A stretch of DNA of 64,000 bases from an uncultured Elusimicrobia bacterium (lineage in GTDB: Bacteria; Elusimicrobiota; Elusimicrobia; F11): contig CAYOPN010000001.1 of NCBI GenBank assembly GCA_964405835.1, positions 51,502-115,501 of the forward strand, given 5' to 3'. Positions 1 through 17,800 of the stretch are shown here, one piece after another; within the stretch, counting starts at the first letter, position 1; each line of letters starts with the position of its first letter. The notes under the pieces were generated by a model. It worked only from the letters and a program-made list of their open reading frames with translations, was not told the origin of the DNA and searched no databases. A program made the position numbers and the translations under genes.

Positions 1-268
1 CTTTCTTGGCGAACTTCACAAACGTTGTCACGATCTCCTGTGTGTCCACCGTGTAATTGCGCATGACTTTTTTAAGGACTTTGAACATGCCGATTACCTG
101 GCCGATCGGGTAGTTTACGAGTAATGCGCAGAACGTGCCGCCCAGCACGATGCAGAACGCTTCCGCGTTCAAAAAGGGCGCAAACCCTTTCATGCCTTCC
201 GCGTGGAAGACCGTGAAGAAGACCATGAACCCGCCGATCAAAATTCCCGCAATTGTTCCTATGTCCAT
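1..268 (-). CDS. motA: Flagellar-type stator protein MotA/PomA family, N-terminal fragment (gene continues past the left edge)
   Basis: Manual translation of the minus strand from ATG at 268-266 gives MDIGTIAGILIGGFMVFFTVFHAEGMKGFAPFLNAEAFCIVLGGTFCALLVNYPIGQVIGMFKVLKKVMRNYT..., open to position 1. This is the typical MotA/PomA N-terminus (TM1, short loop, TM2). It starts 10 nt inside the end of flbD, the classic flbD-motA arrangement. It is absent from the ORF track because it has no stop codon in the window. Confidence 0.8.
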   Translation of the reverse strand, partial: MDIGTIAGILIGGFMVFFTVFHAEGMKGFAPFLNAEAFCIVLGGTFCALLVNYPIGQVIGMFKVLKKVMRNYTVDTQEIVTTFVKFAKK

Positions 269-462
269 GACATTTCCTTTTTCTGCTTCGTTTGCCGTTG
301 ATATTCGACGATCTTTTCAATCACGACGTTCGCTTTTTCCAAAACGATGATGTTATTGCCGGTGGTCAATGTGATGACCGTGTCCGGCGCGCTCTCCACC
401 TGCTCTATGAGCTCGGCGTTCAACCAAAACTCGGTGCCGTTAAGCCGCCGAAGACAGATCAT
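259..462 (-). CDS. flbD: FlbD (flagellar/swarming stator-associated small protein)
   Basis: The internal Met of track ORF 259..642 gives the 67-aa product MICLRRLNGTEFWLNAELIEQVESAPDTVITLTTGNNIIVLEKANVVIEKIVEYQRQ.... This matches the FlbD family signature (xRLNGxEFxLNAExIExxExxPDTVITL). The upstream 60 codons of the track ORF are R/S/K-rich and overlap the preceding gene, so the shorter start is preferred. Confidence 0.85.
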   Translation of the reverse strand: MICLRRLNGTEFWLNAELIEQVESAPDTVITLTTGNNIIVLEKANVVIEKIVEYQRQTKQKKEMSWT

Positions 463-3121
463 CTTTGTCCTTGTCTTTTTTCTTGCCTGTATCGATGATC
501 GGCGTATCGAGAAACCGGCCGATCGCCGTGAACAAACCGCCCGGTTTTTTGCCTTCGTACTTCGGGTCGGCCGCGTGCTTGGCCAATTCCCGCTGATAAT
601 GAGCTTCGGCCTGCTGCAAAAGCTCTTGGGCCTCACGCTCAATCTGGGCCCGCGCTTCGCGCGCGCGTTTCAGTTCGTCGCGCATGCTCTCGCTTTCCCA
701 TTTGAGCCGGTCCATTTCTTTCTTGGTTTCTTCCTTGCTCTGCGCCGCGCGCTCTTCCATCTCGGTTTCTTTTTCGCGCATGCGGTCCAAAATTTCGCCC
801 TCCATGTCCTGGCGGAGACGGGCTTCAATCGCGCTCGTGTCAACCGGGGCCGATACCGGCATCTCGGAGCGAACACGTTCTTCGGCTTCCGCGGCGGCTT
901 GGCGTTTCACCTGATCAATTTCGACGCGCTTCTGTTCGAGCAACTTTTCGCGGTCTTCTTTCGCGTGCTGCAGGAATTCTTCATGCTCTTTTTGGAGCTG
1001 CTGGAATTTGCGGTCAACGACGGCCAAACGCGTCTTAAATTCGGCGGTCATGTCGTCTTTGTCGGCGATAATTTGTTTGAGCGCTTTTTCCTTCTCTCTA
1101 AAGATGTCGTCTTTTTTCTCGATTTCTTGAAGTTGGCCGCTGGTGCGCGACAACGCTTCTTTGGCTTTTTCCAACGCCGCGGTCTTTTCGACCAATTCCG
1201 AACGCAAGTCCTCCAGGCTTTGGAGCCCGCGGCCCTGCAATAATTTCTTGTATTCGGCGACTTGGTCCTCCAAAGCGGCTTGTTTCTGGCGCGCAAGCTC
1301 GATTTCATTCTCGAACCCTTGCAGCCGATCGGTCAATTTCTTCACTTCCGCTTCGCGCTGATCCACCTGCGTCTGCGTAAATTCGGCGCTGGCACTGCGT
1401 TGACGCAGTTCTTGCTCGAGGCTGATGCGCGCGTCCTCCGCCTGGTCCAATTTGATCTGCGTGTTCTGCAGCGCTGTATTCAATTCTTTGACTTGGGCTT
1501 CCATGTCCCACTGCGACTGCTTCCAGTCCGCGCGGACCTGGTCGAGTTCCTGCTGTAACGCGACGCTGCTCTGCGTGTTGCCACGGTTCTCATCGGCAAT
1601 ACGTTCGGCATCTTTCAGGCGGGCTTCCATTTTGTTCATTTCGTCCTGGACCTGCATGCGCGCGTGATCGTACTCGCGTTTCACATTGGAGTCGTACCAG
1701 TCGAGCCGTGATTGCAATGTCTTGATGCGCGTGTCCGCTTCCGCCTGGATACGCTGCGCTTCCTCGGCTGCGGCCAGACGTGCATGGCTTAAATCTTTCG
1801 TCAACATTTCGATCTGGTCTTCGTATTTTTTCCGTTGGGCACCGGTCAGGCCCTCGTTTTCCGTGGCGCGGCGGCGCGCGTCTTCCAATGCTTTCTCCTT
1901 CTCCTGCAGGCGGTAATCAAGCTGGTTGATCTGCGCCCGCGCCTGGGACAACTGTTGGTCGACGGAATTGGCATGCACCGTTTTCTCGGTAACGTCGCGC
2001 ATATAGTTCTGGATCTGCGCATTCAGGCTCATCAATTGTTTCTCGGCGGTCTCTTTCTCATTGGCAAGCTGCTGTTTGAGTAAATTATTCTGGGCATCAG
2101 CTTCGCGTTGCAGCGACGTTTTCTCGGCCCGGTGCTGGTCCTCGACCAGTTTCAGCGTGCCTTCCGCGCGCGCGAGCTGGTCCCGAAGAGACTGCCGCTC
2201 CAATAATAGATGGTCTTTTTCCTGACTGAATTTGTCTTTGGCCCGCTCCATTTCCCGGTCGGCCTTGTCCCGCTCGGCCGTCATGGATTTCAGGCGGTCT
2301 TCCCAGAAGGCCTTGTCTTGTTCGGCCTTGATCTGGATCTCATGCCGGACGCGTGTGAGCTCCGCTTCTCTTTCCCTCAGCGCGTTCTCAAGGCCGGACT
2401 TTTCCTGTGACCAGCGGTACTCCAAATCCTTAAGACGGGACGAAAAATGGACCTCCATTTCCTGTGTAATCTGGTCGCGCTGTCCCATCTGGCCTTTGAG
2501 CGTGGCCACCCATGCTTCGCGCTCCTCGGCCATGCGGCGTTCCAAGTCAAGCACGCGACCTTCGGCCTTGCGGCGCGCGTCATCAAGCTCCTGCTCGCGT
2601 TTCTCGCGGCGCAGTTTGTCCTGAATGTCCTTGATGGACGTTTCGACTTTCGCCGAGACGGCTTCCTCTTCTTTTGACCGGAGCGACGCCAACAAAACTT
2701 TTTCACGTTCTTCGAGCAGCTTCTTTTCAAGATCGGCGATCTGCTGCTCCATTTGATTTTTAAGCGAATCGGTCTCCGCTATTTTGTTCCCCAAGGCGGG
2801 CGTGAACGGACCGGTCCCGGCGGGCGGCATCGGCGGAGCAGCCGCAGGAGGCCCTGCTGGCGGACGTGGCGGCATGGCCGGAGGCATTCCCCCTACAGTA
2901 GGCGGTATTGGCGGTTTGGCCGCGGGAGGCATCGGTGGAGTGGCAGGAGCGCCCATGGCCGGCGGTGGAACGGCGGGTTTAGCCATCGGCTTCATGCCGG
3001 GCAATTGCATCCCTCCTCGCGGAGGGACCGGTCCTTTGGGCAGCGACCCCGGTTTCTTCGGGGGCGGATGCGGGGGGCGTGACGGTCCTGGCCCTCCCGG
3101 TTTTTCTTCCGGTTTGTCCAT
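440..3121 (-). CDS. 893-aa protein: Pro-rich N-terminus followed by ~750 aa of E/K/R/Q-rich predicted coiled coil; no signal peptide or TM seen
   Basis: Long ORF. The first ~112 aa are ~40% Pro (PGGPGPSRPPHPPPKKPG...PPAMPPRPPAGPPAAAPPMPPAG). The rest is heptad-like (LEKKLLEEREKVLLASLRSKEEE..., AEVKKLTDRLQGFENEIELARQKQAALEDQVAEYKKLL). The ATG at 3121 lies 1 nt after the stop of the upstream gene, and the 3' end overlaps the flbD start by 23 nt. Confidence 0.8.
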   Translation of the reverse strand: MDKPEEKPGGPGPSRPPHPPPKKPGSLPKGPVPPRGGMQLPGMKPMAKPAVPPPAMGAPATPPMPPAAKPPIPPTVGGMPPAMPPRPPAGPPAAAPPMPPAGTGPFTPALGNKIAETDSLKNQMEQQIADLEKKLLEEREKVLLASLRSKEEEAVSAKVETSIKDIQDKLRREKREQELDDARRKAEGRVLDLERRMAEEREAWVATLKGQMGQRDQITQEMEVHFSSRLKDLEYRWSQEKSGLENALREREAELTRVRHEIQIKAEQDKAFWEDRLKSMTAERDKADREMERAKDKFSQEKDHLLLERQSLRDQLARAEGTLKLVEDQHRAEKTSLQREADAQNNLLKQQLANEKETAEKQLMSLNAQIQNYMRDVTEKTVHANSVDQQLSQARAQINQLDYRLQEKEKALEDARRRATENEGLTGAQRKKYEDQIEMLTKDLSHARLAAAEEAQRIQAEADTRIKTLQSRLDWYDSNVKREYDHARMQVQDEMNKMEARLKDAERIADENRGNTQSSVALQQELDQVRADWKQSQWDMEAQVKELNTALQNTQIKLDQAEDARISLEQELRQRSASAEFTQTQVDQREAEVKKLTDRLQGFENEIELARQKQAALEDQVAEYKKLLQGRGLQSLEDLRSELVEKTAALEKAKEALSRTSGQLQEIEKKDDIFREKEKALKQIIADKDDMTAEFKTRLAVVDRKFQQLQKEHEEFLQHAKEDREKLLEQKRVEIDQVKRQAAAEAEERVRSEMPVSAPVDTSAIEARLRQDMEGEILDRMREKETEMEERAAQSKEETKKEMDRLKWESESMRDELKRAREARAQIEREAQELLQQAEAHYQRELAKHAADPKYEGKKPGGLFTAIGRFLDTPIIDTGKKKDKDKDDLSSAA
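2786..3121 (-). other. Proline-rich low-complexity N-terminal segment of the 893-aa protein
   Basis: Runs of PPxP / PPA / MPP in aa 1-112, read directly from the translation. Confidence 0.8.
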
Positions 3122-3122
3122 A

Positions 3123-4874
3123 TTATGCGGCCTTCTTTATGCCGATTTGGTCCAGGACGCTTTGAACAACCGACATAGCGTCCTGCACTTCGCGTAAAAA
3201 TACCTGCGTCTCTTGCTCTTCATCGCGGTACCAGCGGTCCAAAAACCCGACCTGCGCCGCGATGCCCGACGCTTCCTTCAAAACGTCCGCCTGAGTCTGC
3301 TTCATACGGTCCGTCCAGTCGGAGATCAATGTCTCTAATTCCTTAATCTGGGCGAATAACCTCGTTTTTTCAAGCTCAAACTGGATTTCACGCTGTTTGC
3401 GTTGTCCACCGCTCTTCTCCTGCATCTGCAACAGGTAGCTCTGGACATCGTCCGTGCGTTGGTTGTCGCGTGATTCGGACTCCCCCATTGTGTTCTTCTC
3501 TTTCAAAAATTTCTGCTGGAGCAGTTCAATCTGTTCGTGTAGCGCCACGCGCTCTTTTTTCAAAACGTCCAGCCGCGCCTGCCACAGGGCCCACAGCCGG
3601 TCGCGGCGCCAATGCCAGCGCTGGTTGATGAGCTGTTTCTCTTTTTCGGCGTTGGCGCTGATGCCGGTGTGCCGCGACTTGATGTCGGAAAGGCGTTGTT
3701 TAAGTTCATCGCGTTTGGCCTCAAGACTGCGCAGCGCCGTGCGTGCTTCGCGGTCGACCCGCAAACGTTCGGCGTCGTATTCGGAATCATGGACCGCCTT
3801 CTGCATCATGAGCGAACGGATCTGGTTGTCCCAATGCCATTTGCGCTTCTCGTATTCCTCTTTAAGCCGGGTCAGTTCTTTTTCTTTCGAGGCTTTTTCC
3901 TGTTCGTAAAGTTTCTGTTCGTAGTCACGGCGTTCGGACTCGGCCTTGACCGCGTCTTTGAGCATCAGCTCTTCTTTGAGGAACGCTTCTTCAGTCTCTT
4001 TTTTGACCTTCTCGTGATTGGTTGAAAATTCCTGCAGCTCGCGTTCGGACGCGGTCACTTTTGCGCGCAAGTCCGCCACTTCGGCCTCGCATTTCCGCTG
4101 GTCTTCCTCGGCCTTCTCTACGAGCGTCGCCTTGTCCACATCGAGTTGTTCGCGCGATATTTTCATGGCCAAACGGGCCTGGTCGAGTTCTTTCTCTTTC
4201 TCGCTCTTGATCTCGGTAAGCCGCTTTTCGATATGGTCTTTTTCCGTGGTGATCGCGGTCAACTCCTTCTTGATCGCTTCCAGCGCCATCGCCCAGCCCT
4301 CGCGTTTGGCGTCGGAGCTCTCTTTCAGCTTCTCGAGCTTCTCGGAGGTCATGGAGTTGATCTTGGTCAATTCGTCCTGTGCTTTGTCCCGGGATTCCTT
4401 GACCTTCACTTCCATGTTCTGCCATTCGCGCAAAAGCCCGGCGCGCGTCACGGTCAGATGGCGCATTTTCTCTTGATACATATCGGTCAACGCGCTTTTC
4501 TGACGTTCCAATGAAATCTTTAGGTTGGTCTTTTCCTCGTTGATGCGGGCCAGCTCTGTTTCGTATTTCTTTTCGAGATCGCGGTATTCTTCCTCAAGTC
4601 GTTTGAGCTGTTCGCGGTTCCCGTTTACGTCGCGCTCAAGCCGGTACTTCGCCTGCGAATATTCCTTGCCAGCCTGGTCGAGCTGGGATTTGGTTTGGGT
4701 ATCCAGATTGTTAAATTCGTCGAGTTTCTGTTTTTTTTCAGTGTCCCAATCAGCGACGGCGTGGAGAAACAGCGCTTCAACGGCGCGCGCCTCGCGCTCC
4801 AACAAACGATCGTAGCGCTCGCTCCATTTCTGGAGGCGGGTCAATCTTTGGTCGAGTTCGCCGGAAGGTTTCAT
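3123..4874 (-). CDS. 583-aa predicted coiled-coil protein, no recognisable enzymatic domain
   Basis: Long ORF with charged heptad-like sequence throughout (LKRLEEEYRDLEKKYETELARINEEKTNLKISLERQ...) and two Trp-rich patches (RKWHWDNQIRSL; INQRWHWRRDRLWALWQARLDVL). Its start lies 4 nt after the stop of the FliG-like gene, and its stop lies 1 nt before the next start. Confidence 0.75.
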   Translation of the reverse strand: MKPSGELDQRLTRLQKWSERYDRLLEREARAVEALFLHAVADWDTEKKQKLDEFNNLDTQTKSQLDQAGKEYSQAKYRLERDVNGNREQLKRLEEEYRDLEKKYETELARINEEKTNLKISLERQKSALTDMYQEKMRHLTVTRAGLLREWQNMEVKVKESRDKAQDELTKINSMTSEKLEKLKESSDAKREGWAMALEAIKKELTAITTEKDHIEKRLTEIKSEKEKELDQARLAMKISREQLDVDKATLVEKAEEDQRKCEAEVADLRAKVTASERELQEFSTNHEKVKKETEEAFLKEELMLKDAVKAESERRDYEQKLYEQEKASKEKELTRLKEEYEKRKWHWDNQIRSLMMQKAVHDSEYDAERLRVDREARTALRSLEAKRDELKQRLSDIKSRHTGISANAEKEKQLINQRWHWRRDRLWALWQARLDVLKKERVALHEQIELLQQKFLKEKNTMGESESRDNQRTDDVQSYLLQMQEKSGGQRKQREIQFELEKTRLFAQIKELETLISDWTDRMKQTQADVLKEASGIAAQVGFLDRWYRDEEQETQVFLREVQDAMSVVQSVLDQIGIKKAA

Positions 4875-4878
4875 ATTT

Positions 4879-6759
4879 TTATGCCGCCGGCGCCGCGAGG
4901 CTCACGCGGAATTGTTCGACCCACGCCTGCAGTTCCGGGTTCGGTTCAATGGCCAGGCCCGCATCGTAGGCCGCGAGCGCTTCTTGATATCGGCCGAGCG
5001 CATAGTACGCACCAGCCAGGGCCAGTTGCGCCGCCGCTACCGTCGGATCTTTCTGGGCACTCGCCTCAAACGACGCCAACGCGGCTTCCATGTTGCCCTG
5101 TTCCTGCGCCGCAACGCCAGCGGCGTAATCTTGCGCGGCACCTTCGGGATCGCTCGGCTGATTTTTGGTGCGCAGCGTGCTTAAGTTGATGCCGGTCATG
5201 TCCGCCGAATCAAACGAGGTGCTCTTCTTCGCCTGCCGGAACGAAATTTTCCCTTCGGTCTCCATCACCTTGATCATGTCGATGATTTTGCGGCGCTCTT
5301 CTTCGACCTGGTCTTCGGTCACGGGACGGCCGTAATCCATTTCTTCTTTGAGCAGTGTCACCGCGCCCTGCGACATATTCTCGAAGAATTTGGCTTGAAG
5401 TTCCGGGCTCGCGCCGCGGAGCGCCCGGCCCAATTGTTCGGTCTTTAGTTCCCGCACCACGACCTGCATAGCCACTTTCGGGAAATTCACGATGTCTTCG
5501 AACAACAGCACGCGCTCGCGCACGCGCTCGTAGATACCAGGTTTTTCGTTCTTCAAATACTCAAGTATGTTGTTGCGCGACATGCGGTCCGAGCTTTCCA
5601 GGATCGTGACGAGCTTCTCGAGGCCGCCCACCACGAAGTCAATTTTCTGTTTGATGTCCTCATCGATCGTCTGCACCTGTTCCAGGGAGGTCTGGCGGTA
5701 CATTGCGGTCTCGAGCGCCACTTTGGCTTGGAGGTCGCCGGGCAGCGCTTCCATCACCTTGAACGAATGTTCCGGCGACAGATAGGAAATCACGAGCGCC
5801 ACAATCCATGGCTCCTCGTGATGCAGCAGGTACGCCAGCTGCTTTATATTTTCGTCGTTCACGTATTTAAATGGTTCGAATTTCTTCATGGCTTCCTCCT
5901 CCGCCAACTGCGCTTCCAAAGCCGCCTGCTCCTCCGGCGTCATTCCGTTTTCGCCGTTGGTCTCGTCTTCGCTCTCCGCGTCTGTTTCGTTCTCGGTCTC
6001 GCTCTTGTTTTCCATTTCCACTTTGGATTTGGACTGCTCTTTCATGCCGTCGATGTAGTTCTTCATGAATTCGGCCAATGGGCCGGATAAAAACCGCAGA
6101 AGCATGAACGCTAAAAGAAGCAGGAACAAATACAAAAGCGTTTTTGCGTCCAAGGATCCGATGAGGTTCTTCTTCACCGTTTCTTTCGGATCGTAATTTT
6201 CGGTCTCGGTCAAAAACGACGTGGCTTTAAATATGAGCTTGAGAATGCTGCGATAGCGGTCGAACGCCGATTCCAGCGCGCCTTTGGCCATGTCGACGCG
6301 TTCCGTCGGTACCTTGTCGTCATGGACGACCGTGATGTCGAAGCGTTTCAAAACGGTCTTCATGTCGACGCTGGATTGCTGGGCGGCTTGGTTTTCAACG
6401 GAGAGATCTTTGGGGGTTTCTTCTTTGGAAACGGACTTGGGGGCCGGGACCCAAGGAAGCAGGAAATTGTCGTCGCCAAGGCCGTTCTTCGCATCGCGTT
6501 TTTGATTCAAGGCCGATCCGCCTTTGCGCGTGCTCTCGAGGCCCAACTCCACGTTCACGAGCACGCTGGCGCGGCCCTTGCCCATGATGCTGTCGCAGAT
6601 GGATTGGGCCTTTTGTTCGGAATCTTCTTTTAGGCGGCGTTCTTGATCAAAGACATTTGGGTCCGGGGCCTCGGTTTCGGCTTTTCCAATAGCGCAAAAC
6701 GCCATAAAAATGGCGCTTAAAAACAGCGCGTTTTTGATCCGGACCCCATTTAGTCTCAT
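4879..6759 (-). CDS. Membrane-anchored FliF-like / FliG-like fusion protein with C-terminal TPR domain (626 aa)
   Basis: Layout: aa 10-25 hydrophobic anchor; aa ~26-204 periplasmic segment with FliF/SctJ-like strings (ICDSIMGKGRASVLVNVELGLES; LKRFDITVVHDDKVP...AKGALESAF); aa 205-226 TM (TLLYLFLLLLAFMLLRFL); acidic linker; aa ~296-507 clear FliG middle and C-terminal domains; aa ~540-615 TPR-like (ALASFEASAQKDP...AGAYYALGRYQEALAAYDAGLAIEPNP). FliG strings: FEPFKYVNDENIKQLAYLLHHEEPWIVALVISYLSPEHSFKVMEALPGDLQAKV; LLFEDIVNFPKVAMQVVVRELKTEQLGRALRGASPELQAKFFENMSQGAVTLLKEEMDYGRPVTEDQVEEERRKIIDMIKVMETEGKI. Confidence 0.8.
   Translation of the reverse strand: MRLNGVRIKNALFLSAIFMAFCAIGKAETEAPDPNVFDQERRLKEDSEQKAQSICDSIMGKGRASVLVNVELGLESTRKGGSALNQKRDAKNGLGDDNFLLPWVPAPKSVSKEETPKDLSVENQAAQQSSVDMKTVLKRFDITVVHDDKVPTERVDMAKGALESAFDRYRSILKLIFKATSFLTETENYDPKETVKKNLIGSLDAKTLLYLFLLLLAFMLLRFLSGPLAEFMKNYIDGMKEQSKSKVEMENKSETENETDAESEDETNGENGMTPEEQAALEAQLAEEEAMKKFEPFKYVNDENIKQLAYLLHHEEPWIVALVISYLSPEHSFKVMEALPGDLQAKVALETAMYRQTSLEQVQTIDEDIKQKIDFVVGGLEKLVTILESSDRMSRNNILEYLKNEKPGIYERVRERVLLFEDIVNFPKVAMQVVVRELKTEQLGRALRGASPELQAKFFENMSQGAVTLLKEEMDYGRPVTEDQVEEERRKIIDMIKVMETEGKISFRQAKKSTSFDSADMTGINLSTLRTKNQPSDPEGAAQDYAAGVAAQEQGNMEAALASFEASAQKDPTVAAAQLALAGAYYALGRYQEALAAYDAGLAIEPNPELQAWVEQFRVSLAAPAA
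4915..5142 (-). other. C-terminal TPR-like repeats of the FliG-like protein
   Basis: Ala/Tyr/Leu pattern typical of TPR helices in aa ~540-615. Confidence 0.6.
5239..5874 (-). other. FliG middle + C-terminal (torque-helix) domain region
   Basis: Motif-level match to the FliG_M pattern (EHPQ-type helix here EEPW, then xLPxxLQAxV) and the FliG_C pattern (F.FEDI...; ALKGAS.EL....F.NMS...A..L.EEM...GPV...VE..Q..I). Confidence 0.8.
6082..6732 (-). other. TM1 - periplasmic FliF/SctJ(RBM)-like segment - TM2
   Basis: Two hydrophobic helices bracket ~180 aa whose two conserved-looking strings resemble the start and end of the FliF RBM3 region (xIVGxGxVxVxVxAELDF and IKRLSVAVVVD...). The resemblance was judged by eye only. 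Confidence 0.45.
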
Positions 6760-6914: not shown

Positions 6915-8630
6915 TTATTTATAGGCGCCGAGTTGACGTAGGTACTCGATGGCGGTCTGGTTGTTCGGCTCGAGTTCGAGCGCGCGTTTCCAGAGCGTGA
7001 TGGCCTTCTCTTTCTCGCCCATCAAGAAGAACGACGCGCCCATGCGGCCGATCGCGGTCACGTTGCTCGGGTCGATACGGAGAACTTGTTCGCACTTGGT
7101 GATGGCGACGTCGTAGCGGCCTTCGTAGATCGCCGTCAACGAATCGTGCAGTTTCTGGTCAACCAAGGTCCAGCGGGCGCCCGACACGGTGTCGCGCGGC
7201 ATCTCCACTTGCGGGAGGCCGGCCTGGCGGGCGATGCGGTTCGTGAAATTCATGAGGTTCGGGTTCGACGGGTTCTTCTCGAACGCGGTGCGCAACGAGT
7301 CATAGGCCGTCGTGAGGTCGCCCTGCACATAGGCCGACACGCCTTGGCGGACCAAGCGGTCGATTTCGCCGTCGCCGGTGGCGGCCGGCAAGGAGCCCGC
7401 GATGGCGTTCATCTTGTTGACCATGGCCTGAAGGTCCTTGTTGCCCGGATCGACGGACAGCGCCGCTTCCAAGCGCGCCACGGCCTGCGCGTAGTTGCCT
7501 TTGCTGAACGCGGATTCGCCGGCCTTGATCAAACGGCGCACTTCGTCGCCGCGGCCCGAGGTGGCGGTCTTGCCGAATTTAAAGCCAAGCGACATGCGTT
7601 GCGACATGCCGAGTTCGTTCAAGCCCACGGCCAGATCCAAATTCAAACGGCTGAACGCGAAACCGAACCCGAAGGTCGTTTCCGCAATTTCACCATCACG
7701 GTTTTCAAGGCCCAAACGCAGGGCCATTTTGCGCGTGGCCCAATATTCGGTGCCCAGGTTCCAGCCGAGGCCCGAGTACTTGTTGGAATTGATGTCGGCG
7801 GCGAGCACGAGGCGCTTATTAAGCATGCTGTAAGAGTTGCCGATGCGCAGCGTGAGCGGCAGGCGATCGTCGGATTCGGCCGGCGCCTGGCTGACCGCGT
7901 TCTTGATGGACAAACCGAAGCGGTAGTTCTCATTGACCTTCGAAAACACCGAGGCGTCGACCGCTGAAAATGATTGAGCGAATGTATCGATCGTGGTGCT
8001 GATGCGTTTGAGCGCGATACCGGCGGAGAGCTTCTGGGTGACTTGTTTTCCATAGGCAAACGTCATGCCCTGCTGCGAAATAACAAAGTCCCCTTTCTTG
8101 TCCACCGTAAGGTAGTTGGGGCTGTCCGGCGGCGACGACGGATCGATGGTCACAGCCACCTTCTCGAAACCGCCGGAATTCAGCCGCGTCATGTTAAAAC
8201 CCCAAGCGCCCATTTTGGAGCCCGGGCTGACGTAGCTGATAGATGTCAGCGTGGTGTCTTCAAAGAGCGAGGCCTGCATCGCCTGAAGCTCTTTGCGTTC
8301 TATCTGGACCATGGCGGCGGGGTTCCAATAGGTAGCGCTGGCATCATCGGCCACAGCCAAGAACGCGCGGCCCATGCCCAATGAACGGGCGCCGGAACCC
8401 CATTGCATAAAGCCGGCAGGTTCGCCGGCAGCGAAAATGTGAGAGATCGACGGAACGACCACCAACGCCACGATCACAAGCGCACGGGTGAGATGCGCCT
8501 TAAACGGGGTATTGGAGGGATGCAAGGAAGGAGAGACCTGGGTAGAAATAAAGGAGCAAAGCGCCGTCAGCGCTTTGAAATAAAAATTCCGATGTGTTCC
8601 CTCGATCACGTCGTACATTTCGTTTTTCAC
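6915..8630 (-). CDS. PorV/PorQ-like outer-membrane beta-barrel fused to a C-terminal TPR domain (571 aa as drawn; start uncertain)
   Basis: A signal-like segment (KAHLTRALVIVALVVVPSISHIFAAGE) is followed by AGFMQWGSGARSLGMGRAFLAVADDASATYWNPAAM, the ARSxGMGxAxxAxxDDxSAxxWNPA signature I associate with PorV/PorQ/UPF0164-type barrels. After that come alternating beta-strand-like sequence ending ...MSLGFKFG, then ~210 aa of TPRs (FSKGNYAQAVARLEAALSVDPGN; IYEGRYDVAITKCEQVLRIDPSN; FLMGEKEKAITLWKRALELEPNN). The track start is GTG at 8630. ATG at 8618 or TTG near 8519 would place the signal peptide closer to the N-terminus. Confidence 0.7.
   Translation of the reverse strand: MKNEMYDVIEGTHRNFYFKALTALCSFISTQVSPSLHPSNTPFKAHLTRALVIVALVVVPSISHIFAAGEPAGFMQWGSGARSLGMGRAFLAVADDASATYWNPAAMVQIERKELQAMQASLFEDTTLTSISYVSPGSKMGAWGFNMTRLNSGGFEKVAVTIDPSSPPDSPNYLTVDKKGDFVISQQGMTFAYGKQVTQKLSAGIALKRISTTIDTFAQSFSAVDASVFSKVNENYRFGLSIKNAVSQAPAESDDRLPLTLRIGNSYSMLNKRLVLAADINSNKYSGLGWNLGTEYWATRKMALRLGLENRDGEIAETTFGFGFAFSRLNLDLAVGLNELGMSQRMSLGFKFGKTATSGRGDEVRRLIKAGESAFSKGNYAQAVARLEAALSVDPGNKDLQAMVNKMNAIAGSLPAATGDGEIDRLVRQGVSAYVQGDLTTAYDSLRTAFEKNPSNPNLMNFTNRIARQAGLPQVEMPRDTVSGARWTLVDQKLHDSLTAIYEGRYDVAITKCEQVLRIDPSNVTAIGRMGASFFLMGEKEKAITLWKRALELEPNNQTAIEYLRQLGAYK
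6918..7553 (-). other. TPR domain of the barrel protein (aa ~360-571)
   Basis: At least 4-5 TPR-like helix pairs read from the translation. Confidence 0.7.
7572..8417 (-). other. Beta-barrel portion (aa ~72-353)
   Basis: N-terminal GMG/WNPA signature, amphipathic strand pattern, and aromatic-terminated C-terminal strand (LGFKFG). Confidence 0.6.
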
Positions 8631-8807: not shown

Positions 8808-11800
8808 TTAGTTAATAATGCCGATTTTGCGGATAACGGTGGTCGAACCTTTTGATCCGATGACCTCGATCCGCATGATGTAGCCGCCGGCGGCGACGCG
8901 GGTACCGCCGGTGTCTTTGCCGTCCCATTGGAACACGTTGGGGCCGGCTCTACCGCCGGTCTGGCCGGCGCCAAAGTCCCATTCGCGGATCTTGTAACCC
9001 AACAGATCAAACAGCAAGATTTTGACCGTCGCGTCCTCATTAAGGATATAGGCGATGTTGGTCGGACCCTGACGAATATCCACCGGGTTCGGGTAGTTCG
9101 TCACTTTGGTGATCGCTTCGTTCGGGAAGCCGGTGCTGGCCGGTTCCGACGGATCGGACCAGGCGCTTACGCCGCCCGCTTGGTTAATCGAACGAATACG
9201 ATACTGATAGAAATGACCTCCCGGTTTCGGCAAATTGGCCGGATTATCTTTGTTGCCGATCAACATTGAGAACTGGTTACCGGGCACGAGGCGAATTGTT
9301 GCCCAGGTAGGATCATTGTCCACGCGTTCTTGGATTTCGTATGCGCGCACGCCGGATTCGCTGTCCCCACCGACAGCCCAACGGATCGTGAACACGCCGC
9401 TCTTGGCCGGCTCGCCGCCCGCCAACTCTTGGTCGGAAACGGGCTTCCCAGGCACCGTCGGTGGTGACAGGTCGATGCGGTAGAACTTGACCGCCGTTTC
9501 AGCGCCCGCCAATCCTCCAGAGGTGACGGCGCGCGCGCGCACAACGTATGCGTTGTTCGTGACGCGATCTCCGACAAAATGTTCGACACGCGGCGTGCCG
9601 TATGTTTCTCCGCGTCGGTTAATGACGAACTTGTTGTTGACCCGCTGCGAATAACCGAGGATTTCACTGCCGATTTGAATTTGGTTGTTTTCCGCAGGGA
9701 AATCTTCGAGCCCATTGGTGTTGTCTACATAAAGATCAAACGGCGGATTTGTCGTGATTGGCAAACTTTGCGAGAGTTGGGCAACCGCCGCCGCAAGCAA
9801 TGTTAAGTTGCTCATCTCGATAAAGTTCTCTTTTTGGGTGTCCATCCAACCGAGGCCACCCAACTGCTGACGCGAAATGGAGTTCATTAAGTTGTTCACG
9901 CTAAGACCCACTTCGTATTTGCCCAATGCGGAGCTGCTAACCTTGGCCCATTTCGCGAACAGTTTGGATGTGTCTTTCGACCATTTTTCCGGAATGTAGC
10001 CAAAGTCCGGGAAGCCATCTTTGCCCAAATCAATTTCCGGGACACTATCGCCGTTCTGGTCGGGCAATACGGTGTCGGGCGTTCCGTCGTTATTGAAATC
10101 TACATCCAAATACCCGCTCTTGAGCATATCGACCTCGATCAACCCGTCGCCGTCCAAGTCAATTCCGGGAAGCTGTGTGGCCGCGTCTTTAATCACATCG
10201 TTCAGTCCATCTCCGTCGACATCCACCATTGGCACGCCGAACGAGTCGAACGTGCGCGGCGCCGGGATGCCGTTCTCGTCCAGCGCCGGATACCCGTCGC
10301 CATACGGATTGGCCCAAATGCGCGGCATCACGAACACCGGCGAAACGATCATGGAGCCTTCATCGAGAATCGTTGTCAAGTTACTATTGAGTGAAACAAA
10401 ATCGATGGCAGGGTCGGCCCCCGCCGTGGCCGGGACAAATGTAAGGTCCGAAAATTTCTCGATTTTGATGCCGAACTGATGGCCTTTGGTGGATTCCAAC
10501 GTGAGCGAGGTTTCACCCACATCGACGGTGACGAAAAAATTAATAAGCGACGTGCTGATAACCTGACCCGATGAAGCATTCAGGTCCACGAACGCTACGC
10601 CATTCACAAAATTCGTTGATTGGCCAAGCAAGACCTCGCCGATCAGCGTGTCGGACAACGGCTCGAAAATCGTGTTGTCATTGTCCCGCCACAACGAGAC
10701 GCGCGTAATGTCGCCCTGACCATCGACATCGCTTTCAATGCGACCCGTCTGCTCAAACCGGATGCGATTCAACGTCACGTGATTGCGGTTGGTGACCATC
10801 GTGAACATCATCATAGGCACGCCGGTGGACAACGCCGGAATTTGCGGCGGCGCCAATGTTTGCCCCGACATGCTCACCTGCACCGCGTTAATCAAGAACA
10901 AAGATGTCTGATAGGGGTACGCCTGTTGGGGCGTGGTTCCGTTCAAGAATTTAACAACGGGGGACACCGTGTTCGGCGCCGACACGCTGATCCAAGACCG
11001 ATCGGCAATACGCACCCCGAGAGTGGCGCCCGCCTCTGCCCCGTCGCCGATATCATAAGCCACGAAGAAACTCCGGCCCGTCGGCGACAACAACACCGAT
11101 GTCGTAAGCGGGATTTGGATAATGCGATCGTTGTTATCGGACAAGTTGAATTGCGCGGTCGGGCTGCTTAGCAACTCGTCGCCGGCGTCCAACTGATCGT
11201 TGAAGTTAACGTCGCGGTAAATCTTCACGTATTTAACGTCCGAGTTCCGGCCGAAGGGATAGCCCGCCGGATTTTCAAGCGACGACCCGGTGCGTTCAAG
11301 ACGGATCGAGTTCCACGTGGCTTGCGACAGATCCGTGGCTAATGTGAACCGCAACACCTCCACATTGGTGCTCGCCTGGTAGGTCCCGCCATTTTGCGAC
11401 ACGACCTTCGCCGAATCAAACACAGAGAGCGTCACTATATCGCTGGCTTCCAACACACTGGAGCGAGACGTGCTGAACGGCGGCGTGATGGTTACGAACG
11501 ACGGCGTATCGGGGAAGTCAACCGTGAAATAATCGGTGGCGGAAATGCGCGCGCCGACATTAACGCCCACTTGCGCGAACGCGTTCAAATCATAGGTTAA
11601 GAAGTAATTCTGCCCAGCCGGGTTCACCGTCTCGGATTCAATGACTTGCGGATCGAGAACAAGGTTCGTGGTCATTTCGTTGAATGTCTCGGTACCCTGC
11701 GAGAGCATATGGACCAACGCCCCATTCGCATCAGTGCTCGTTTCCTGCACGTTGAATATGTTGTCGTTCCCGACATCTTCAAAGATGCGGATCGCCGATA

Positions 11801-14800
11801 CATCGCCGTTGACGGCACCATTGTCGGTAATAAGGTCGACGCGCAAATTCGTCCATACCGCCGTATTAGCGTTGGTCTTCAAATTGATGCGCGCCATCGG
11901 CACGTATTGAAGCGCCTGCGTCACTTGGGGCGGCGCCAGGTCTTCCATGAAGATCTTCATCGTATCGAGCGTCGGACGAATGACGTTCGCCGGCGATTCG
12001 ACCGGCATGTTCGCGCTCGACACGCTGTGAATTCCGTCGTTGCTGGTCAGCGCGCCGATAGAGAGGCTGGTCGCGCTGTTGATCTTTAGCGCGAGCAAAT
12101 CGTCGTAAATTGCCGTTGGATCCACATCCACGGTGACCCAATACGTTGTCTGCTGCGATGTCACGAGCGCGAAACCGGGGCTGCCGACCGTTGGGTCGTT
12201 GAGCGCGATTAACGCCACGCCGCCTGCATCGCCGCCCGTGCCAAGCGCCTTCTGACCAACCAGCGTTTCGGTTCCCGGAGGAATGATCCCCGTCGCGGGA
12301 TCGCGGTCCAACGTTCCGTTGCCATTATCGCGCCATACCTTGATCATCGCGACATCGCTATCACTGCCTTTAATCGAACCCGGTGGCAAGAAGCGGTTGA
12401 GGCGCAAAGAGAACCAACGCACGTTAAAACCATCGCAGGAGACGAGCAGCTTCATAAAGGCGTTGTTTAAATCGCCTTGCGTGTAATGAACGCCCACTTT
12501 CGCATTGCCGAGATGCGCGTTGGGGACCGTTCCCAACTGGCCGCGCGACACGCTCTGCAGCTGACCGTTGCTCTTCGAAGCGTAATAAATCACTTCGGAG
12601 TCGATGACCGCATAACCCGATGTAGGCAGGCCCAATGTATTGGGACGCAGCGGGATCGCCGTCGCCACCGAGCTCACATCCACATCCAGAACCGGCGTGG
12701 CGGTCACGCCGGAGCTGTTGCTGAAAAGCAACGTCGGTTCGACGGTGACAACCCGTGGTGACGGGATGATCGTTCGCACCATGGAGTTGGCCGGCAAATT
12801 CGCCGCGCTCACCGTGTCAAAATTGGGCGGCGTTGGGAACATCGTGAACGATGCCGGGCTTGCTATACGGAACGAGAGCGTGGTTTCCGGCGTGGCGAGC
12901 GGCTCCATGTCCACCGTCAAGAAATAACGCAGGCTTGTATTTGTGGCAAGGCTGCGCGGCGTGGTCATCAAGGTTTGCTGCCCGTTGAAATTAATTTGTG
13001 CAATGCGCGGGGTTCCCGTGTTGCCGAAGGTGCCCGTGCCCACGCGCACGTCGTTAACGCTTGAAAACACGCCGTTGTTATCCACGTCGTACCAAACGGC
13101 AATCTGCTCCACATCGGCCGGATTCGCCGTGCCCGTGGAGAAGATTTGCAGCCCCGTCCAGAACGCTTCGGATTGGTTGGTTGACAGCATCATCTGCAGC
13201 ACCGGCTGATTGATCGCCGACTGCTGAAGCGTGCTGCCGAGTGTCGTGTTCGTGGACACGACCGTGATCGTATCGCCGTACTCCAATATGTCGCCGATTT
13301 CCGCGTTAAAACTCGGGATCGGATCAACGATATCGGGCGCCCCAACGCTCACATAGGAGGTGGCCGGAATAGCAAGACCCAGGACCGTCTGTTGACCAGC
13401 CAGTCGGCCCGGAATGGCCAAGGGGTCGATATCGTAAACGATGAAATACGATTTGTTGCGGCCGGCACTAAATACCGACTCCCCGGTTAAATGATCCACC
13501 GGCACAACACGGGTAACACCGGTGAACGAGGTCGCGGTTTTACCCGTGTAAGCAATACCGTTTTCAGCGCCGATCGAAACCGTACCGGAAGGCGGGAATT
13601 CGGTCGTGTCGCCGACATTGATCGTCAACGGCCCCGTGCTGCTGTCCATGTCCGCGGTGATCACGGTCTCGGCCTTGAACGCCAAATTCTCGGTTATTTC
13701 CTGTCCGCCAAACGAACCAAAAATCTGCAAATAACTTTGACCGTCAACTTGCACGCCGGCCGCGTGCGCGATGGGCGTTGAGCCTTCGACACCACGCGTA
13801 ACGCCCGTAAATTCGTTAAACACAGCGTCAATGCCCGTATAGGTCACCACCTCGCGGTTGCCGGTGTTGTCTTCAATCACCAACCGTCCGGGCGCGGCAG
13901 GGAAATCCTCGACCGAACTGACCGGGATATTGGTGGCGGCGCCGGATATCGCGGATGCCAGCGTCGCCGATTTGAACACGATCTTTTTATTGGTCGGAGA
14001 CACAATTTGGTCGATATCCGGATCCAATTGCTGGTTACCGTCGACGTCATAGTAAACCCGCATATCTTCGACGTCGCTCGCTTCATTGACCAAGTTCGTG
14101 TTTTTACGGTCGATCCGAATTCCGGTCAATATGACCGAGTGATCGTTCGAATACATATCGAGGCGAACAATCGGAACATCTTTGTCCCCTTGCGTCGCCG
14201 CGGCCGGGGCCACCGGGATCGGGTTGATAATAAGACGGTCGTTGGTGGCGGCAATCGGCGGCGTTCCCGACAAGACCGGGAATGCTTGCGTGGTCGGGTC
14301 CACCAGATAATCCACCATCGCGCCGTCGGAAAGAATGATGTCCGTTCGGGATGGGATGCGGATGCCGAGCGTGGAACCAATGGAAGCCGAGTCCGCCAAC
14401 GCCATCACAACGTAAAGATATTTGGTCGTCCCATTTAGGAGCAGATTCGGCTGAATATCCAACAGCGCCGCGCTGGTTGAAAAAGACATGACGCTTGAGT
14501 TAATAAGCGTGTCCGCGCCGGGTTGGAAATTTCCATCGCCGTCGGTGCCGTCCAATCCGTCCAAATACAAACGGATGTTTGAAACATCCAAATCGCTGGC
14601 GGTGCCCGTCCGCGTAACCCGAATTTTGTCGAGAACGCCGGTGAAATCCCGCGTCCAGAACCCGAGTTTCAAATAACCGGCCGCCGATTGACCTTGCGGA
14701 ACGGTGGCATTCTGAGCGTTGCTGTAATAGGCGGCGATATTATCGGCACGCAACATCACCGGCGCCGGCGTCTTTGTGATCGGCGATTCATAAGACAACA

Positions 14801-17800
14801 TCGGGAAATTGTTCTCCGCGATACGCGCCGTCGACTCGATGGCCGGGATGGTGAAGGCCCCCGAATCCAGGATACCCACGCCCAGCGTTGTATTTTCCGC
14901 AGCCACCGTGCTGATGCGAACCGTCACGAAGTAATACTGAAACACGTTTGTGATGACTTGCGATGACACCGTGAAATCAAGATCGCAAATATCGTTGCCG
15001 GAAACATTGGCGAAAGTGCCCGTCGCCACGGGGACGCCTACCGTGACGCCGTTGCCGTCGTCGGCGGAGTCAAATTCACCGTCTTTGGGCCCCATGTCCT
15101 TCCACAACGCGACTTCAATCACATCTTCGTTCGGCAAGTCGCCGAGCTTGGTCACGCGCAGCCCTTTCCAGGTCGCGTACGTCGCCACGGTGGGCTTCAC
15201 CACCGTGTGCAACCGCAGCATCGCTACTGGATCCGGCTTGTCAACCGTGGTTCCATCGCCTTGAGCGAGCGAGAAAGGAATCGAAATCGAATCTTTATAG
15301 GGGTCGCGGTTGCCGATCGGCTCCGGCGCCAAATCCGTCGGCGTGCCGACAAGACCGGTGGTCGTGATATCTCCGCTTGAAGGGGGTAAACCCGTGCGAC
15401 CATTGATAGATGGGTTTGCATAATCGGTCGCGTACACCCTCAGGGTTTCTTGGATTAAGTCGCGGATGCTGAAAGAACCCGTTGCGGTATTCGTTAACGT
15501 GAGCGTGGAAATACCAACCCCATCACCGGTAATCGTGACCGTCGCGGTGCTGGCGGAGTGTGATAAGCGGATTATGCCGGAATAAACCAATCCATTGTTT
15601 TCGCCGATCGCAGCGCCGCCGTCGGCCGCGTTGTTGTAGACATCGCGCGCCACCACCGAAATCACGCCTTCGTTACGCACGCTCAACGGGCTGACGGTGG
15701 TATACGGATGCTCAAGTGAAATCTTGGTGGCGCGGTTGGGCGTAATCACCGCGTTCTGCGTGCTCGACAAGATGGTCCCACCTTGGTGCACCGCCGACAA
15801 CACCGGGAAGCCCACCGTTTGATCTTTGTAATACATGTCGCGTTCGGTCGTGCCCGGAGGGAATGAAAGTGAAAGCCCATTCGCTCCGAAGATGGAGTCA
15901 AAAGTTCCCGTGGGCGTGGTGCCACCCTGGCCAAGCGGCGAGGTCGAGAACACATCGACCGTCTGAGTGCCGGTCGAAGACGAAACGTTATCGTACCGAT
16001 CGCGCATCTGAATCTGAATATTCGGCGTAGTTACGCCAATGACATACGAGCTGGTTGTGCCGGCAATCAATTTGCGCACCGGCGTATTGAACACGAGGCG
16101 ATAGGGCGGCGCGGCCTGGACCGTGTACGTTTGGGTGGCGATGTCCCAACCGCGCGAGGGCGCGAAATTCTCGCGGACCGTATGCAAGTGATTCCCCGCC
16201 TTGTCATCGGACATATAGTAGGTCGTCGTGTGCTGGCCCAAGGCCAAGTTGGCCATGCCGTTTCCAGAGGAGAAGGTCGCGCTGGATGGAGAAGCGAATC
16301 GGTAATTGCCCGTCGAATTCGACTCCAAACGGAAATTAATCCCGGCGCCGGCATTGTCCTCGCTGCCCAAGATAACCGGCGTGGGGTTCGAATATTTATC
16401 CTGCAATTGGATCGTGCGCACGGACGTTGTTGTGCCCGCCACGAACACGGCTGGCGACGAAAGAATTACGATCTTGTTCTGGAAGTCGAATGTTGGCAGC
16501 ACCGTCACAAAATGGTCCGACGTCTGCCACGACCGGGCCTCGGCTTTTCCGCCGATGATCGGACGACTTGAGGAAAGGACGCCGTAACTTTCCGAAGATG
16601 TTGTGTCGAAGTAATAGAAACGCGTCACATATGTTCCGGAAGCGATATCCAGGCTTCCGGTCGTGTTTGCCAATAGCCCCGGCAAGGTGGTGGCCGCCGA
16701 GCTGAACAAAAATCCGTACGCGTCGTTGGTGGCGGAGACGGTTCGCGTGCTTAAGAAATTAACCTTGATGGTTTCGGTCGCCAACGTCGGGTTTGAGAAC
16801 GAGTCCCACAACTCAAATTGATATTCCTGCACATTGCCCTGGTAGGTGATCATGCCGGCTTCCAACGTGCGGCGCGGATTGTCGACGCCGATCGTTGCCG
16901 TCTGACCTGGCACCACCAAGAGTTCATGCGTGGCCGTCGTCAGCGGAGCGCCTTCGGCGCGTATCTGCCAGGTCCCAAGCCGGCCGTCCTCGCCGATTGG
17001 GATGGACGACATCGTGTCGTAGAACGAGAACTTCATCTGAGAAACGCCGATGTTGAACACGCGGGTTGTGATTTGATTCACCTGCGCGTTGGGCTCGGTG
17101 AAATAGAATGTTTTTCCGTCCGATGAATGCGTGGTGCTCTGGCCGGTGCCCAGCAACAAATTAACGTTCGACACCGATTCCGTGGTCGCATTGTCGAAGT
17201 CATCGCGCCGCTCCAAGGTGAATTGATCGGCGGTCCAGGTCCCGGCCACCATGCTCGTTGGCGCGCTGGTGAAAACAAGTTTCGAAGGCGATCCGCCCTT
17301 CGTCACCAAACTCAATGTGTTGCCGGTCACCGAATTGCTGGCAAAGCGCACTTGCGCGTAATCCGCGGCGCGGGTTGAAACAAAGTAATAGAAAGCGGGG
17401 CTGCTGCCGATGCGTCCATTGGCGTCGGTCCATGTTGATGTAACGACGTTGTAAGACGCGCCGTCAAACCAACGGATGGTGCCGGTCGCGCCGAACACAT
17501 TAATCACGTTCAAGTCCGCGTTGAAATTCGGCGTGGCAACATGGTTATTGTATTGATCGGCCAATTGCGCGACCAGCTGAACCTTGCCGAGATTCGACAG
17601 GTTTCCGGCGGACACATTAACCTGATTGTCGACGGTCCCATCTGTCAAATCAGCCGGCGTCGTGAACAAGAATCGGCTCGGCGCACCCGACAGAACCAAC
17701 ACATAGGGCCGCGAAGAGAATCCGGCCCGTTCTGTGCTGATTGCGGACGAACCAAAATCAGATGCTTTTAACCAGCGCGATCCGGCTTTCTTGAGAGTGA

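Follow-up and report, generated by a model that had tools for sequence, protein, structure and literature searches.

A natural fusion of FliF- and FliG-derived rotor domains encoded with a flagellar-type stator in Elusimicrobiota

Here, we describe a natural, shortened joining of two flagellar rotor proteins, encoded in a 64,000-nucleotide stretch of DNA (hereafter, the window) from an uncultured Elusimicrobia bacterium (GenBank assembly GCA_964405835.1, contig CAYOPN010000001.1, positions 51,502 to 115,501). The gene (4879..6759, minus strand) links a periplasmic homolog of ring-building motif 3 (RBM3) and the β-collar of FliF, through a transmembrane (TM) helix, to the middle and C-terminal domains of FliG (FliG_M and FliG_C; together FliG_MC), followed by a tetratricopeptide repeat (TPR) module. 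We find that the fusion is encoded with a complete flagellar-type stator, with FlbD and MotA in the window and MotB in orthologous loci. According to published genome surveys, flagellar machinery is missing from the phylum Elusimicrobiota (PMC11257099). The presence of a rotor fusion together with MotA, MotB, a PorV-like outer-membrane protein, and a giant surface protein in a phylum reported to be free of flagella thus suggests that the flagellar motor's core has been reused for a non-flagellar machine.

RESULTS

Architecture of the fusion protein

A first-pass annotation of the window, made from the letters alone, had placed at this position an open reading frame (ORF) for a membrane-tethered FliG-like protein with C-terminal TPRs. 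The ORF and its layout are confirmed. It starts with ATG, lies on the minus strand (as do all features described below), and encodes 626 amino acids (aa); an identical protein is present in an NCBI-derived protein collection (P0001). An AlphaFold2 (AF2) model built on the family alignment has a mean predicted local distance difference test (pLDDT) score of 82. It orders the chain as a helix (residues 5–25), an α-helix (34–59), a β-strand (64–79), a disordered stretch (80–129), a β-strand (130–147), an α-helix (152–165), a β-strand (173–180), a long TM helix (205–251), a disordered acidic linker, the FliG helices, and a five-helix TPR module.

Two hydrophobic segments frame the periplasmic part. 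The second (residues 205–229; 6073..6147; hydropathy up to 2.27) is a TM helix, TM2, and is followed by an FGPLA motif that is conserved in the family. The first (residues 6–26; 6682..6744; Kyte-Doolittle window above 1.5) was initially read as another TM helix. It ends in AIGKA followed by ETE, a possible AxA-like cleavage site (GKA/ET); instead of staying in the membrane as an anchor, it may act as a Sec signal peptide and be cleaved off. Between the two segments lies the periplasmic domain (residues 30–186; 6202..6672), with the order alpha-beta-insert-beta-alpha-beta. It spans about 155 aa in the AF2 model. Its insert (residues 80–129; 6373..6522) is modeled at low confidence (pLDDT <50) between the long strands β1 and β2, at the place of the FliF collar loop. 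The insert bears a conserved LPWVPAPKS motif, of which P102 and P105 are invariant in the family.

An acidic, partly disordered cytoplasmic linker follows TM2 (residues 240–290; 5890..6042), as had been anticipated, and stands in place of the FliF C-tail and FliG_N. The net charge is −13 over residues 225–300, and pLDDT falls below 50 at residues 247–272. FliG_M occupies residues 306–374 (5638..5844), and FliG_C, which includes the torque helix NMSQGAVTLLKEEMDYGRP, residues 401–506 (5242..5559). The C-terminal TPR module (residues 538–622; 4894..5148) comprises two repeats and a capping helix, matched by Pfam TPR_19, TPR_2, and TPR_1 at residues 545–612 and modeled with pLDDT ~97. The FliG part comes after the N-terminal segment (export signal or anchor), the periplasmic domain, and TM2, and is therefore predicted from hydropathy and the AF2 model to lie in the cytoplasm and not outside it.

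The periplasmic domain is a homolog of FliF RBM3

The relationship to FliF is clear only from a domain-only AF2 model searched with Foldseek and from an exhaustive profile search, because standard profiles miss the domain. The Pfam profiles YscJ_FliF and YscJ_FliF_C, which had been suggested as a check on the N-terminal segment, give no match in the periplasmic part at E ≤ 1. An hhalign comparison of the family with E. coli FliF as a single sequence is weak (E = 0.073). A profile of residues 27–236 finds only seven weak matches among all PDB sequences, with SpoIIIAG at the top and FliF among the others; the SpoIIIAG and FliF matches are aligned on the first helix-strand.

The structural search is more specific. 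When the domain-only model is compared with PDB by Foldseek, the top 18 matches are all RBM3/collar structures of FliF MS-rings (E = 2e-5 to 1e-3), and PrgK and MxiJ rank next. TM-scores are low (0.3–0.48) because the 50-residue insert is unmodeled. The exhaustive search is the third of three independent lines of evidence that agree. A profile of residues 30–186 alone, run against 1.84 billion representative proteins, gives 178 matches at E ≤ 1e-3 and reaches genuine FliF proteins at library-wide E-values of 6e-6 to 1.5e-5. These include P0250 (570 aa; matched at 232–390, E = 6e-6) and P0251 (517 aa; matched at 238–398, E = 8e-6), which phmmer identifies as FliF by comparison with E. coli FliF (E = 5.6e-55 and 1.9e-70, respectively). 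The similarity to FliF/SctJ ring-building motifs expected from the first-pass annotation is therefore present.

The alignments with genuine FliF proteins span the whole of RBM3, including the Pro/Gly-rich collar stretch, with which the LPWVPAPKS motif aligns. Two strings had been singled out by eye as resembling the FliF ring-building region, and both align with the matching RBM3 strands: IMGKGRASVLVNVELGLES lies across the end of α1 (34–59) and strand β1 (64–79), and LKRFDITVVHDD lies inside strand β2 (130–147). The resemblance extends to RBM3 and the collar only. RBM1 and RBM2 are absent from the fusion, and its periplasmic part of ~155 aa is a single domain. We conclude that this domain is a homolog of the FliF RBM3/β-collar. 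Its arrangement, an RBM in which unusually long β1 and β2 strands flank an insertion, matches that of FliF RBM3 plus β-collar. A role of the LPWVPAPKS insert as a ligand for the TPRs of the PorV-like protein was considered and dropped, as the motif also occurs in clusters without a PorV-like gene and aligns with the FliF collar.

The same profile search also uncovered proteins of other architectures. About 60 of the matches (e.g., P0168, P0182, P0183, P0191, and P0195) are stand-alone proteins of 150–240 aa that cover the profile in full (E = 1e-14 to 1e-5). Eight of these stand-alone RBM3-like proteins (P0168–P0210) were scanned and fall into no Pfam family; the group may represent an uncharacterized family of small ring-building-motif proteins. 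In P0177 (275 aa) and P0185 (333 aa), an RBM3-like domain is combined with a MotA_ExbB channel domain (Pfam E ~3e-6). Unless they are gene-call fusions, these two proteins would be another way to join ring-building and stator-type parts.

The FliG part retains the middle and C-terminal domains

Pfam assigns FliG_M (E = 4.5e-14; 52.9 bits versus a cut-off of 25) and FliG_C (E = 4.9e-28; 98 bits versus 23.3), in line with the motifs that had been recognized by eye. A profile of 114 family members matches Thermotoga maritima FliG_MC (PDB 1lkv) at E = 1.5e-58 and residues 118–323 of E. coli FliG with an hhalign probability of 98.6%, while the fusion itself matches Salmonella FliG 246–321 by BLASTP (E = 7e-13). 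The FliG_N domain is absent: its Pfam profile scores only 17.1 bits (cut-off 25), and this match sits on the FliG_M stretch. The full-length FliG model TIGR00207 matches from model position 109 on and reaches 129.4 bits of the required 226.7. Both results fit the proposal that FliG_N has been replaced by the covalent link. MgtE_N stays below its cut-off (23.2 versus 25.9 bits; E = 1e-4), and Pfam finds no CBS or MgtE transporter domain in the fusion. An assignment of the region to MgtE_N only, with no FliG_C, does not hold.

The family alignment contains 20 invariant columns and about 90 nearly invariant ones. Among these are the Gly-Gly linker (G378 and G379, both invariant) and E472. The FliM-binding EHPQ motif has become EEPW in most of the family, with E315 invariant and W318 present in 102 of 114 members. 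To map the stator interface, Salmonella FliG numbering was checked against PDB 8umd_B and then aligned to the fusion by BLASTP. The five classical charged residues correspond to fusion residues as follows: K264 to R448, R281 to G465, D288 to E472, D289 to E473, and R297 to T481. The D288 equivalent is always Glu across the ~80 orthologous loci, and the D289 equivalent (473) is Glu or Ser and is partly kept. The K264 equivalent is Arg in the window and its close relatives and Gln in many distant members.

The fusion is encoded with a flagellar-type stator

The window holds a 67-aa FlbD/SwrD-family protein (259..462; Pfam FlbD E = 1.9e-26), whose gene overlaps the 3′ end of the preceding gene by 23 nucleotides (nt), and the first 89 codons of motA (1..268; read from the translation), which then runs off the window edge. 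MotA beyond residue 89 and all of MotB were read from orthologous loci, mainly the locus L001 (79–80% identical). L001 continues with a full MotA (262 aa) and MotB (225 aa), followed by unrelated genes.

The L001 MotA matches solved flagellar stators, namely the MotA structures of Bacillus subtilis and Clostridium and the PomA structure of Vibrio, at E = 1e-40 to 1e-44 (E = 9e-45 for PDB 6ysl). It keeps two conserved prolines in the alignment and the motif KKARTDGFLALQ (KKAR..GFLALQ). The L001 MotB has a MotB_plug region, a channel Asp (YADLMT), and an OmpA domain. The best NCBIfam families for MotA are flagellar MotP/MotA/PomA, with all equivalog cut-offs missed (best 216.5 bits versus 394). 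Judged by its sequence, the stator is of the flagellar clade with a torque-generating interface and is not ExbB/TolQ-like. The equivalent of MotA R90 is Arg or Lys in 47 of 47 partners. One classical rotor-stator charge pair is thus kept, and the other is relaxed. A strict covariation between the positions of FliG R281 and MotA E98 was rejected: FliG shows Gly in essentially all members, whereas the MotA partners are split between Gln (34) and Glu (13).

The gene neighborhood is conserved and under purifying selection

A word-indexed search returned 233 related proteins. Most of the 120 listed share the same length (~600–690 aa) and carry FliG_M plus FliG_C, and the organism, where the sources name one, is a member of the Elusimicrobia/Elusimicrobiota. 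The occurrence of many proteins of the same length and architecture in independent assemblies argues that this is not a chance resemblance. A species-level scan, in which each of 185,579 species was represented by a single genome, yielded 80 loci. All of them come from Elusimicrobiota metagenome-assembled genomes, and they cover both Elusimicrobia and Endomicrobiia.

Gene neighborhoods were compared across these loci by simple ORF calling and single-sequence phmmer, on which the following counts rest. The PorV-like gene lies directly upstream of the fusion at 58 of the 67 loci with room for it (two more are mis-called). A homolog of the 893-aa coiled-coil protein is encoded downstream at 55 of 58 loci. 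Among the loci with at least 3 kb downstream, FlbD and MotA are found at 45 of 58 and MotB at 44 of 58. A giant or edge-truncated ORF on the same strand precedes the PorV-like gene at 13 of 54 loci, and in several others a small protein with the C-terminal domain (CTD) of the giant takes this place. TPR-less, shorter fusions also exist.

Compared with four orthologs, the fusion shows saturated synonymous divergence (dS) and nonsynonymous divergence (dN) of 0.14–0.31. The dN/dS ratios lie at 0.04–0.17. Against L001, dN/dS is 0.06 overall and 0.036 in FliG_MC. This strong purifying selection indicates a maintained gene and not a relic.

Several related loci show further arrangements. In L088 (1–15762), the cluster consists of a 16,931-aa protein, a PorV-like/UPF0164 protein with TPRs, a TPR-less fusion (P0181; 577 aa), MotA, MotB, and an 824-aa protein, with a PilZ protein nearby. 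L089 (9216–21650), from Candidatus Margulisiibacteriota, has a response regulator followed by a 549-aa RBM3-like/FliG_MC fusion, a separate 225-aa FliG_C-only protein, and a Kelch/β-propeller protein of >3722 aa; no MotAB genes occur in the 10 kb shown. In L082 (14048–20024), from Elusimicrobia GWA2_56_46, the PorV-like, fusion, and coiled-coil genes are directly followed by CheW-, CheR-, CheB-, CheA-, and CheY-like genes, named by eye from their N-terminal sequences, and there is no MotAB within 10 kb. Last, L071 (1–21509) carries a divergent set of PorV-like, 603-aa FliG-like, MotA, and MotB genes beside a canonical set on one contig, indicating that some genomes hold paralogous copies of the system.

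Other genes of the cluster in the window

All genes from 53869 down to the start of the window are on the minus strand and are separated by short gaps or overlap. In order of transcription, they encode a HEAT-repeat protein, a 14,805-aa giant, the PorV-like protein, the fusion, two coiled-coil proteins, FlbD, and MotA. The HEAT-repeat protein (53222..53869; 215 aa; Pfam HEAT_2 E = 1.2e-21) has an N-terminal hydrophobic segment. The stop of its gene overlaps the start of the giant gene by 4 nt; it is thus possibly the first gene of the cluster and, going by this overlap, may belong to the system.

The giant is a putative secreted or surface protein encoded by a single uninterrupted ORF (8808..53225). 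It has a Sec-type N-terminus, hundreds of immunoglobulin (Ig)-like/SGTA-type repeats, and a C-terminus that resembles the FlgD Ig-like CTDs of type IX secretion system (T9SS) substrates. The assignment of these last ~100 aa is borderline (FlgD_ig 27.1 bits versus a cut-off of 27; Por_Secre_tail 12.7 versus 23). They also match the CTD regions of PorZ, PorU, and M6-like models at E = 6e-7 to 3e-4.

The PorV-like gene (6915..8630), whose true start is probably a TTG at 8525, encodes an outer-membrane barrel of the PorV/PorQ family (NCBIfam NF033709, PorV_fam; 119 bits versus a cut-off of 90) with a C-terminal extension of Pfam TPRs. Against the equivalogs specific to PorV and PorQ, it stays far short of the cut-offs. 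No SprA/Sov, PorK, PorL, PorM, PorN, or PorU stands out among the window ORFs, to which this look for the T9SS core was confined.

Downstream of the fusion, a 583-aa coiled-coil protein of no known family (3123..4874) has weak SMC-type matches and a position that is conserved in related loci. Next comes an 893-aa protein (440..3121) whose N-terminus is Pro-rich and which contains a long coiled coil, again with weak SMC matches. The plus strand has an AT skew of about −0.30 at window positions 1–6000, which arises because these purine-rich (Glu/Lys/Arg/Gln) coiled-coil genes are on the minus strand. At the other end, between the cluster and folD, a 161-aa ORF (53972–54457, minus strand) has a signal peptide–like N-terminus and no family match.

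DISCUSSION

Comparison with known systems

The fusion has much in common with flagellar FliF and FliG: an RBM3/β-collar outside the membrane, a TM helix, FliG_M and FliG_C, the Gly-Gly linker, and an acidic torque-helix residue. As in the flagellum, FlbD, MotA, and MotB form the stator partner set and are here encoded with it. The differences from the flagellar rotor are equally marked. The fusion lacks RBM1, RBM2, FliG_N, and the FliF C-tail; has EEPW for EHPQ and no FliM or FliN; has lost the equivalents of R281 and R297; and has gained a C-terminal TPR module. It is not accompanied by rod, hook, or filament genes, and it occurs in a phylum reported as non-flagellated. Without RBM1 and RBM2, it would offer no housing for the type III export gate. 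Engineered FliF-FliG fusions in Salmonella and Vibrio have the same 1:1 covalent stoichiometry as this natural one, and such fusions still form rings (PMC10941966 and PMC11481574).

Other proteins with ring-building motifs are less similar. SpoIIIAG and SctJ/PrgK share the RBM fold, and SpoIIIAG, like FliF RBM3, has an insertion between β1 and β2. However, the significant sequence matches go to FliF, and neither a FliG fusion nor a link to MotAB occurs in any of these families.

Some parallels concern the cluster as a whole. Gliding motility and the T9SS of Bacteroidota also combine an ion-driven, 5:2-type inner-membrane motor with a PorV/PorQ-family barrel and a very large repetitive surface protein with a CTD-like Ig end (here a borderline match). 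There, the motor is GldLM/PorLM, whereas here it comprises MotAB and a FliF/FliG-derived rotor, and the PorV-like protein bears a TPR extension. The Agl-Glt machinery of Myxococcus comprises a MotAB/TolQR-type motor, TPR proteins, outer-membrane barrels, a long coiled coil (with an AglZ-like role), and a surface adhesin. Its similarity is one of parts lists, by description only; the motor of Agl resembles TolQR and works without a FliG partner. In Salmonella SPI-4, SiiAB is a MotAB-like proton channel that is encoded with, and acts on, the giant repetitive adhesin SiiE. This likeness is again drawn from description, and SiiAB has no FliG/FliF-type partner and belongs to a type I secretion system. 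The Zorya anti-phage system was rejected as a match, since PADLOC detected no ZorA, ZorC, or ZorD and only generic MotB-ZorB matches.

A proposed minimal rotor

We think it likely, on the strength of domain composition and gene linkage, that the fusion forms a miniature MS-ring/C-ring rotor that is driven by MotAB in a non-flagellar envelope machine and works without the FliM/FliN switch. The first-pass annotation had proposed a miniaturized rotor without FliM/FliN partners. This reading is strengthened by FlbD and MotA in the cluster and MotB in orthologous loci, by the change from EHPQ to EEPW across the family, and by the reported lack of flagellar machinery in the phylum.

In the proposed mechanism, the RBM3-like domains would oligomerize into an S-ring–like ring just outside the inner membrane, which would hold FliG_MC units, equal in number, in a ring below the membrane. 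A peptidoglycan-anchored MotA5B2 complex, helped by FlbD, would use ion flow to push the torque helix of FliG_C. The retained charge pair (MotA Arg/Lys at the R90 position and FliG E472 at the D288 position) might mediate this push. The ring would then turn or be stepped, with no FliM/FliN switch to act on it. The cytoplasmic TPR module and the two coiled-coil proteins could stand in for the lower C-ring, as a scaffold or regulator.

The output of such a rotor is more speculative. The periplasmic collar might hand its work to the PorV-like barrel/TPR protein and, through it, to CTD-bearing and often giant surface proteins, so that the system would move, tension, secrete, or release adhesins. 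By analogy with other envelope motors, we tentatively suggest an undescribed envelope-spanning machine in which torque is used through the PorV-like/TPR protein to move, secrete, or release giant CTD adhesins, with no type III export, rod, hook, or filament; we regard this as possible, and as less probable than the rotor itself. GldLM-PorV-SprB, Agl-Glt, and SiiAB-SiiE are speculative analogs of this adhesin output.

Several findings weigh against the proposed rotor or its output. Of the five classical charged FliG residues, two are gone, with R281 replaced by Gly in nearly all members and R297 by Thr, and the position of MotA E98 holds Gln in 34 of the 47 partners and Glu in only 13. Together, these losses imply that the interface is not the same as in the flagellum. 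No rod or other obvious output shaft is found among the genes of the cluster, either in the window ORFs or in related loci. The giant gene is adjacent in only about one-quarter of loci. In about eight loci, a variant arrangement (fusion, FlbD, a small ORF in some cases, MotA, and MotB) has neither the PorV-like nor the coiled-coil genes, and in 12 others a 1600- to 1880-aa protein follows the fusion and no MotAB is found within 10 kb. In addition, the absence of other flagellar genes from this genome rests on the literature, and cultured isolates of the phylum are reported to be non-motile (PMC11257099).

Alternative explanations

Some of these same findings could be accommodated by a non-rotary energy transducer. 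MotAB would act as ExbBD or TolQR do, and the fusion would be a TonB/TolA-like lever, monomeric or of low order, that energizes the PorV-like protein; the work could be the secretion, anchoring, or release of CTD proteins, with no ring turning. The tight linkage to an outer-membrane barrel/TPR gene, a cluster free of rod or shaft genes, and the altered rotor-stator residues would all suit such a lever, as would the precedent of SiiAB, a MotAB-like channel that works with a giant adhesin, and the occurrence of RBM3-like domains fused to MotA_ExbB domains. However, the periplasmic domain is specifically of the ring-forming RBM3/collar type, and isolated Salmonella FliF RBM3 forms rings (10.1101/2021.09.23.461508). 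FliG_M and FliG_C are, moreover, the pair that polymerizes head-to-tail in C-rings, and the stator belongs to the flagellar clade and is not ExbB/TolQ-like. We therefore consider a transducer, the main rival to the rotor, rather unlikely. It is still less probable that the rotor/stator module works for some other filament or motility machinery whose genes lie elsewhere (type IV pilus twitching or Gld-type gliding, for example) and that its proximity to the PorV-like and giant genes is incidental. Such ideas were raised in a preprint on magnetotactic Elusimicrobiota (10.1101/2022.07.08.499144), and the che genes after one related locus and the PilZ gene near another relative would be in keeping with them. 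Yet pil and gld genes are absent both from the window and from the conserved core of the 80 loci, and adjacency to the PorV-like gene at 58 of 67 loci is far too regular for chance.

The remaining explanations deny the protein a new function. Decay of an ancestral flagellum, leaving a remnant without any mechanical role today, might be expected in a phylum reported to lack flagella and could explain the loss of FliG_N, RBM1/2, the FliM-binding motif, and some torque-helix charges. We consider this very improbable given the intact ORFs of constant length in >230 clusters and 80 species-level genomes, the low dN/dS at saturated dS, the many invariant or nearly invariant columns, including the GG linker and E472, and the conservation of gene order and translational coupling. 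Two further readings are already contradicted by the domain architecture: that of an ordinary flagellar FliG, which follows the source annotations (“flagellar motor switch protein FliG”), and that of an MgtE-like protein with an Mg2+-sensing domain, for which only the weak MgtE_N match speaks. The fusion is membrane-anchored, carries RBM3, lacks FliG_N, and falls well short of the TIGR00207 cut-off; the MgtE_N match is below threshold and inside the FliG_C match, with no MgtE transporter domain alongside. These two are the least probable of the alternatives. A miniature, MotAB-driven rotor is the explanation that we prefer.

Significance

To our knowledge, FliG together with flagellar-type MotAB has been described only as part of the flagellum, and the non-flagellar 5:2 motors that we know of (ExbBD, TolQR, GldLM, AglRQS, and ZorAB) all work with other partners. 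Homologs of motAB, flbD, and fliG have been noted in free-living Elusimicrobiota despite the lack of structural flagellar genes, and their role was called unclear (10.1101/2022.07.08.499144). Our literature search found no paper on the FliF-RBM3 fusion, its TPR module, or the link to PorV-like and giant proteins in Elusimicrobiota. Hundreds of database entries labeled “flagellar motor switch protein FliG” are in need of correction.

If our interpretation is true, the flagellar torque-generating core would here be seen for the first time to have been reused, or to have survived, outside the flagellum. The fusion offers a minimal rotor for structural and biophysical work, comprising one polypeptide and no switch complex. 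As a natural minimal motor without a flagellum, it would make it possible to test directly whether the rotary core can exist and work without the export system. The separability of rotor and stator from type III export, in turn, bears on models of flagellar origin. The system is also a candidate explanation for how Elusimicrobiota handle giant surface proteins, and it would represent a new form of gliding or adhesin handling in this phylum, with relatives in at least one other phylum.

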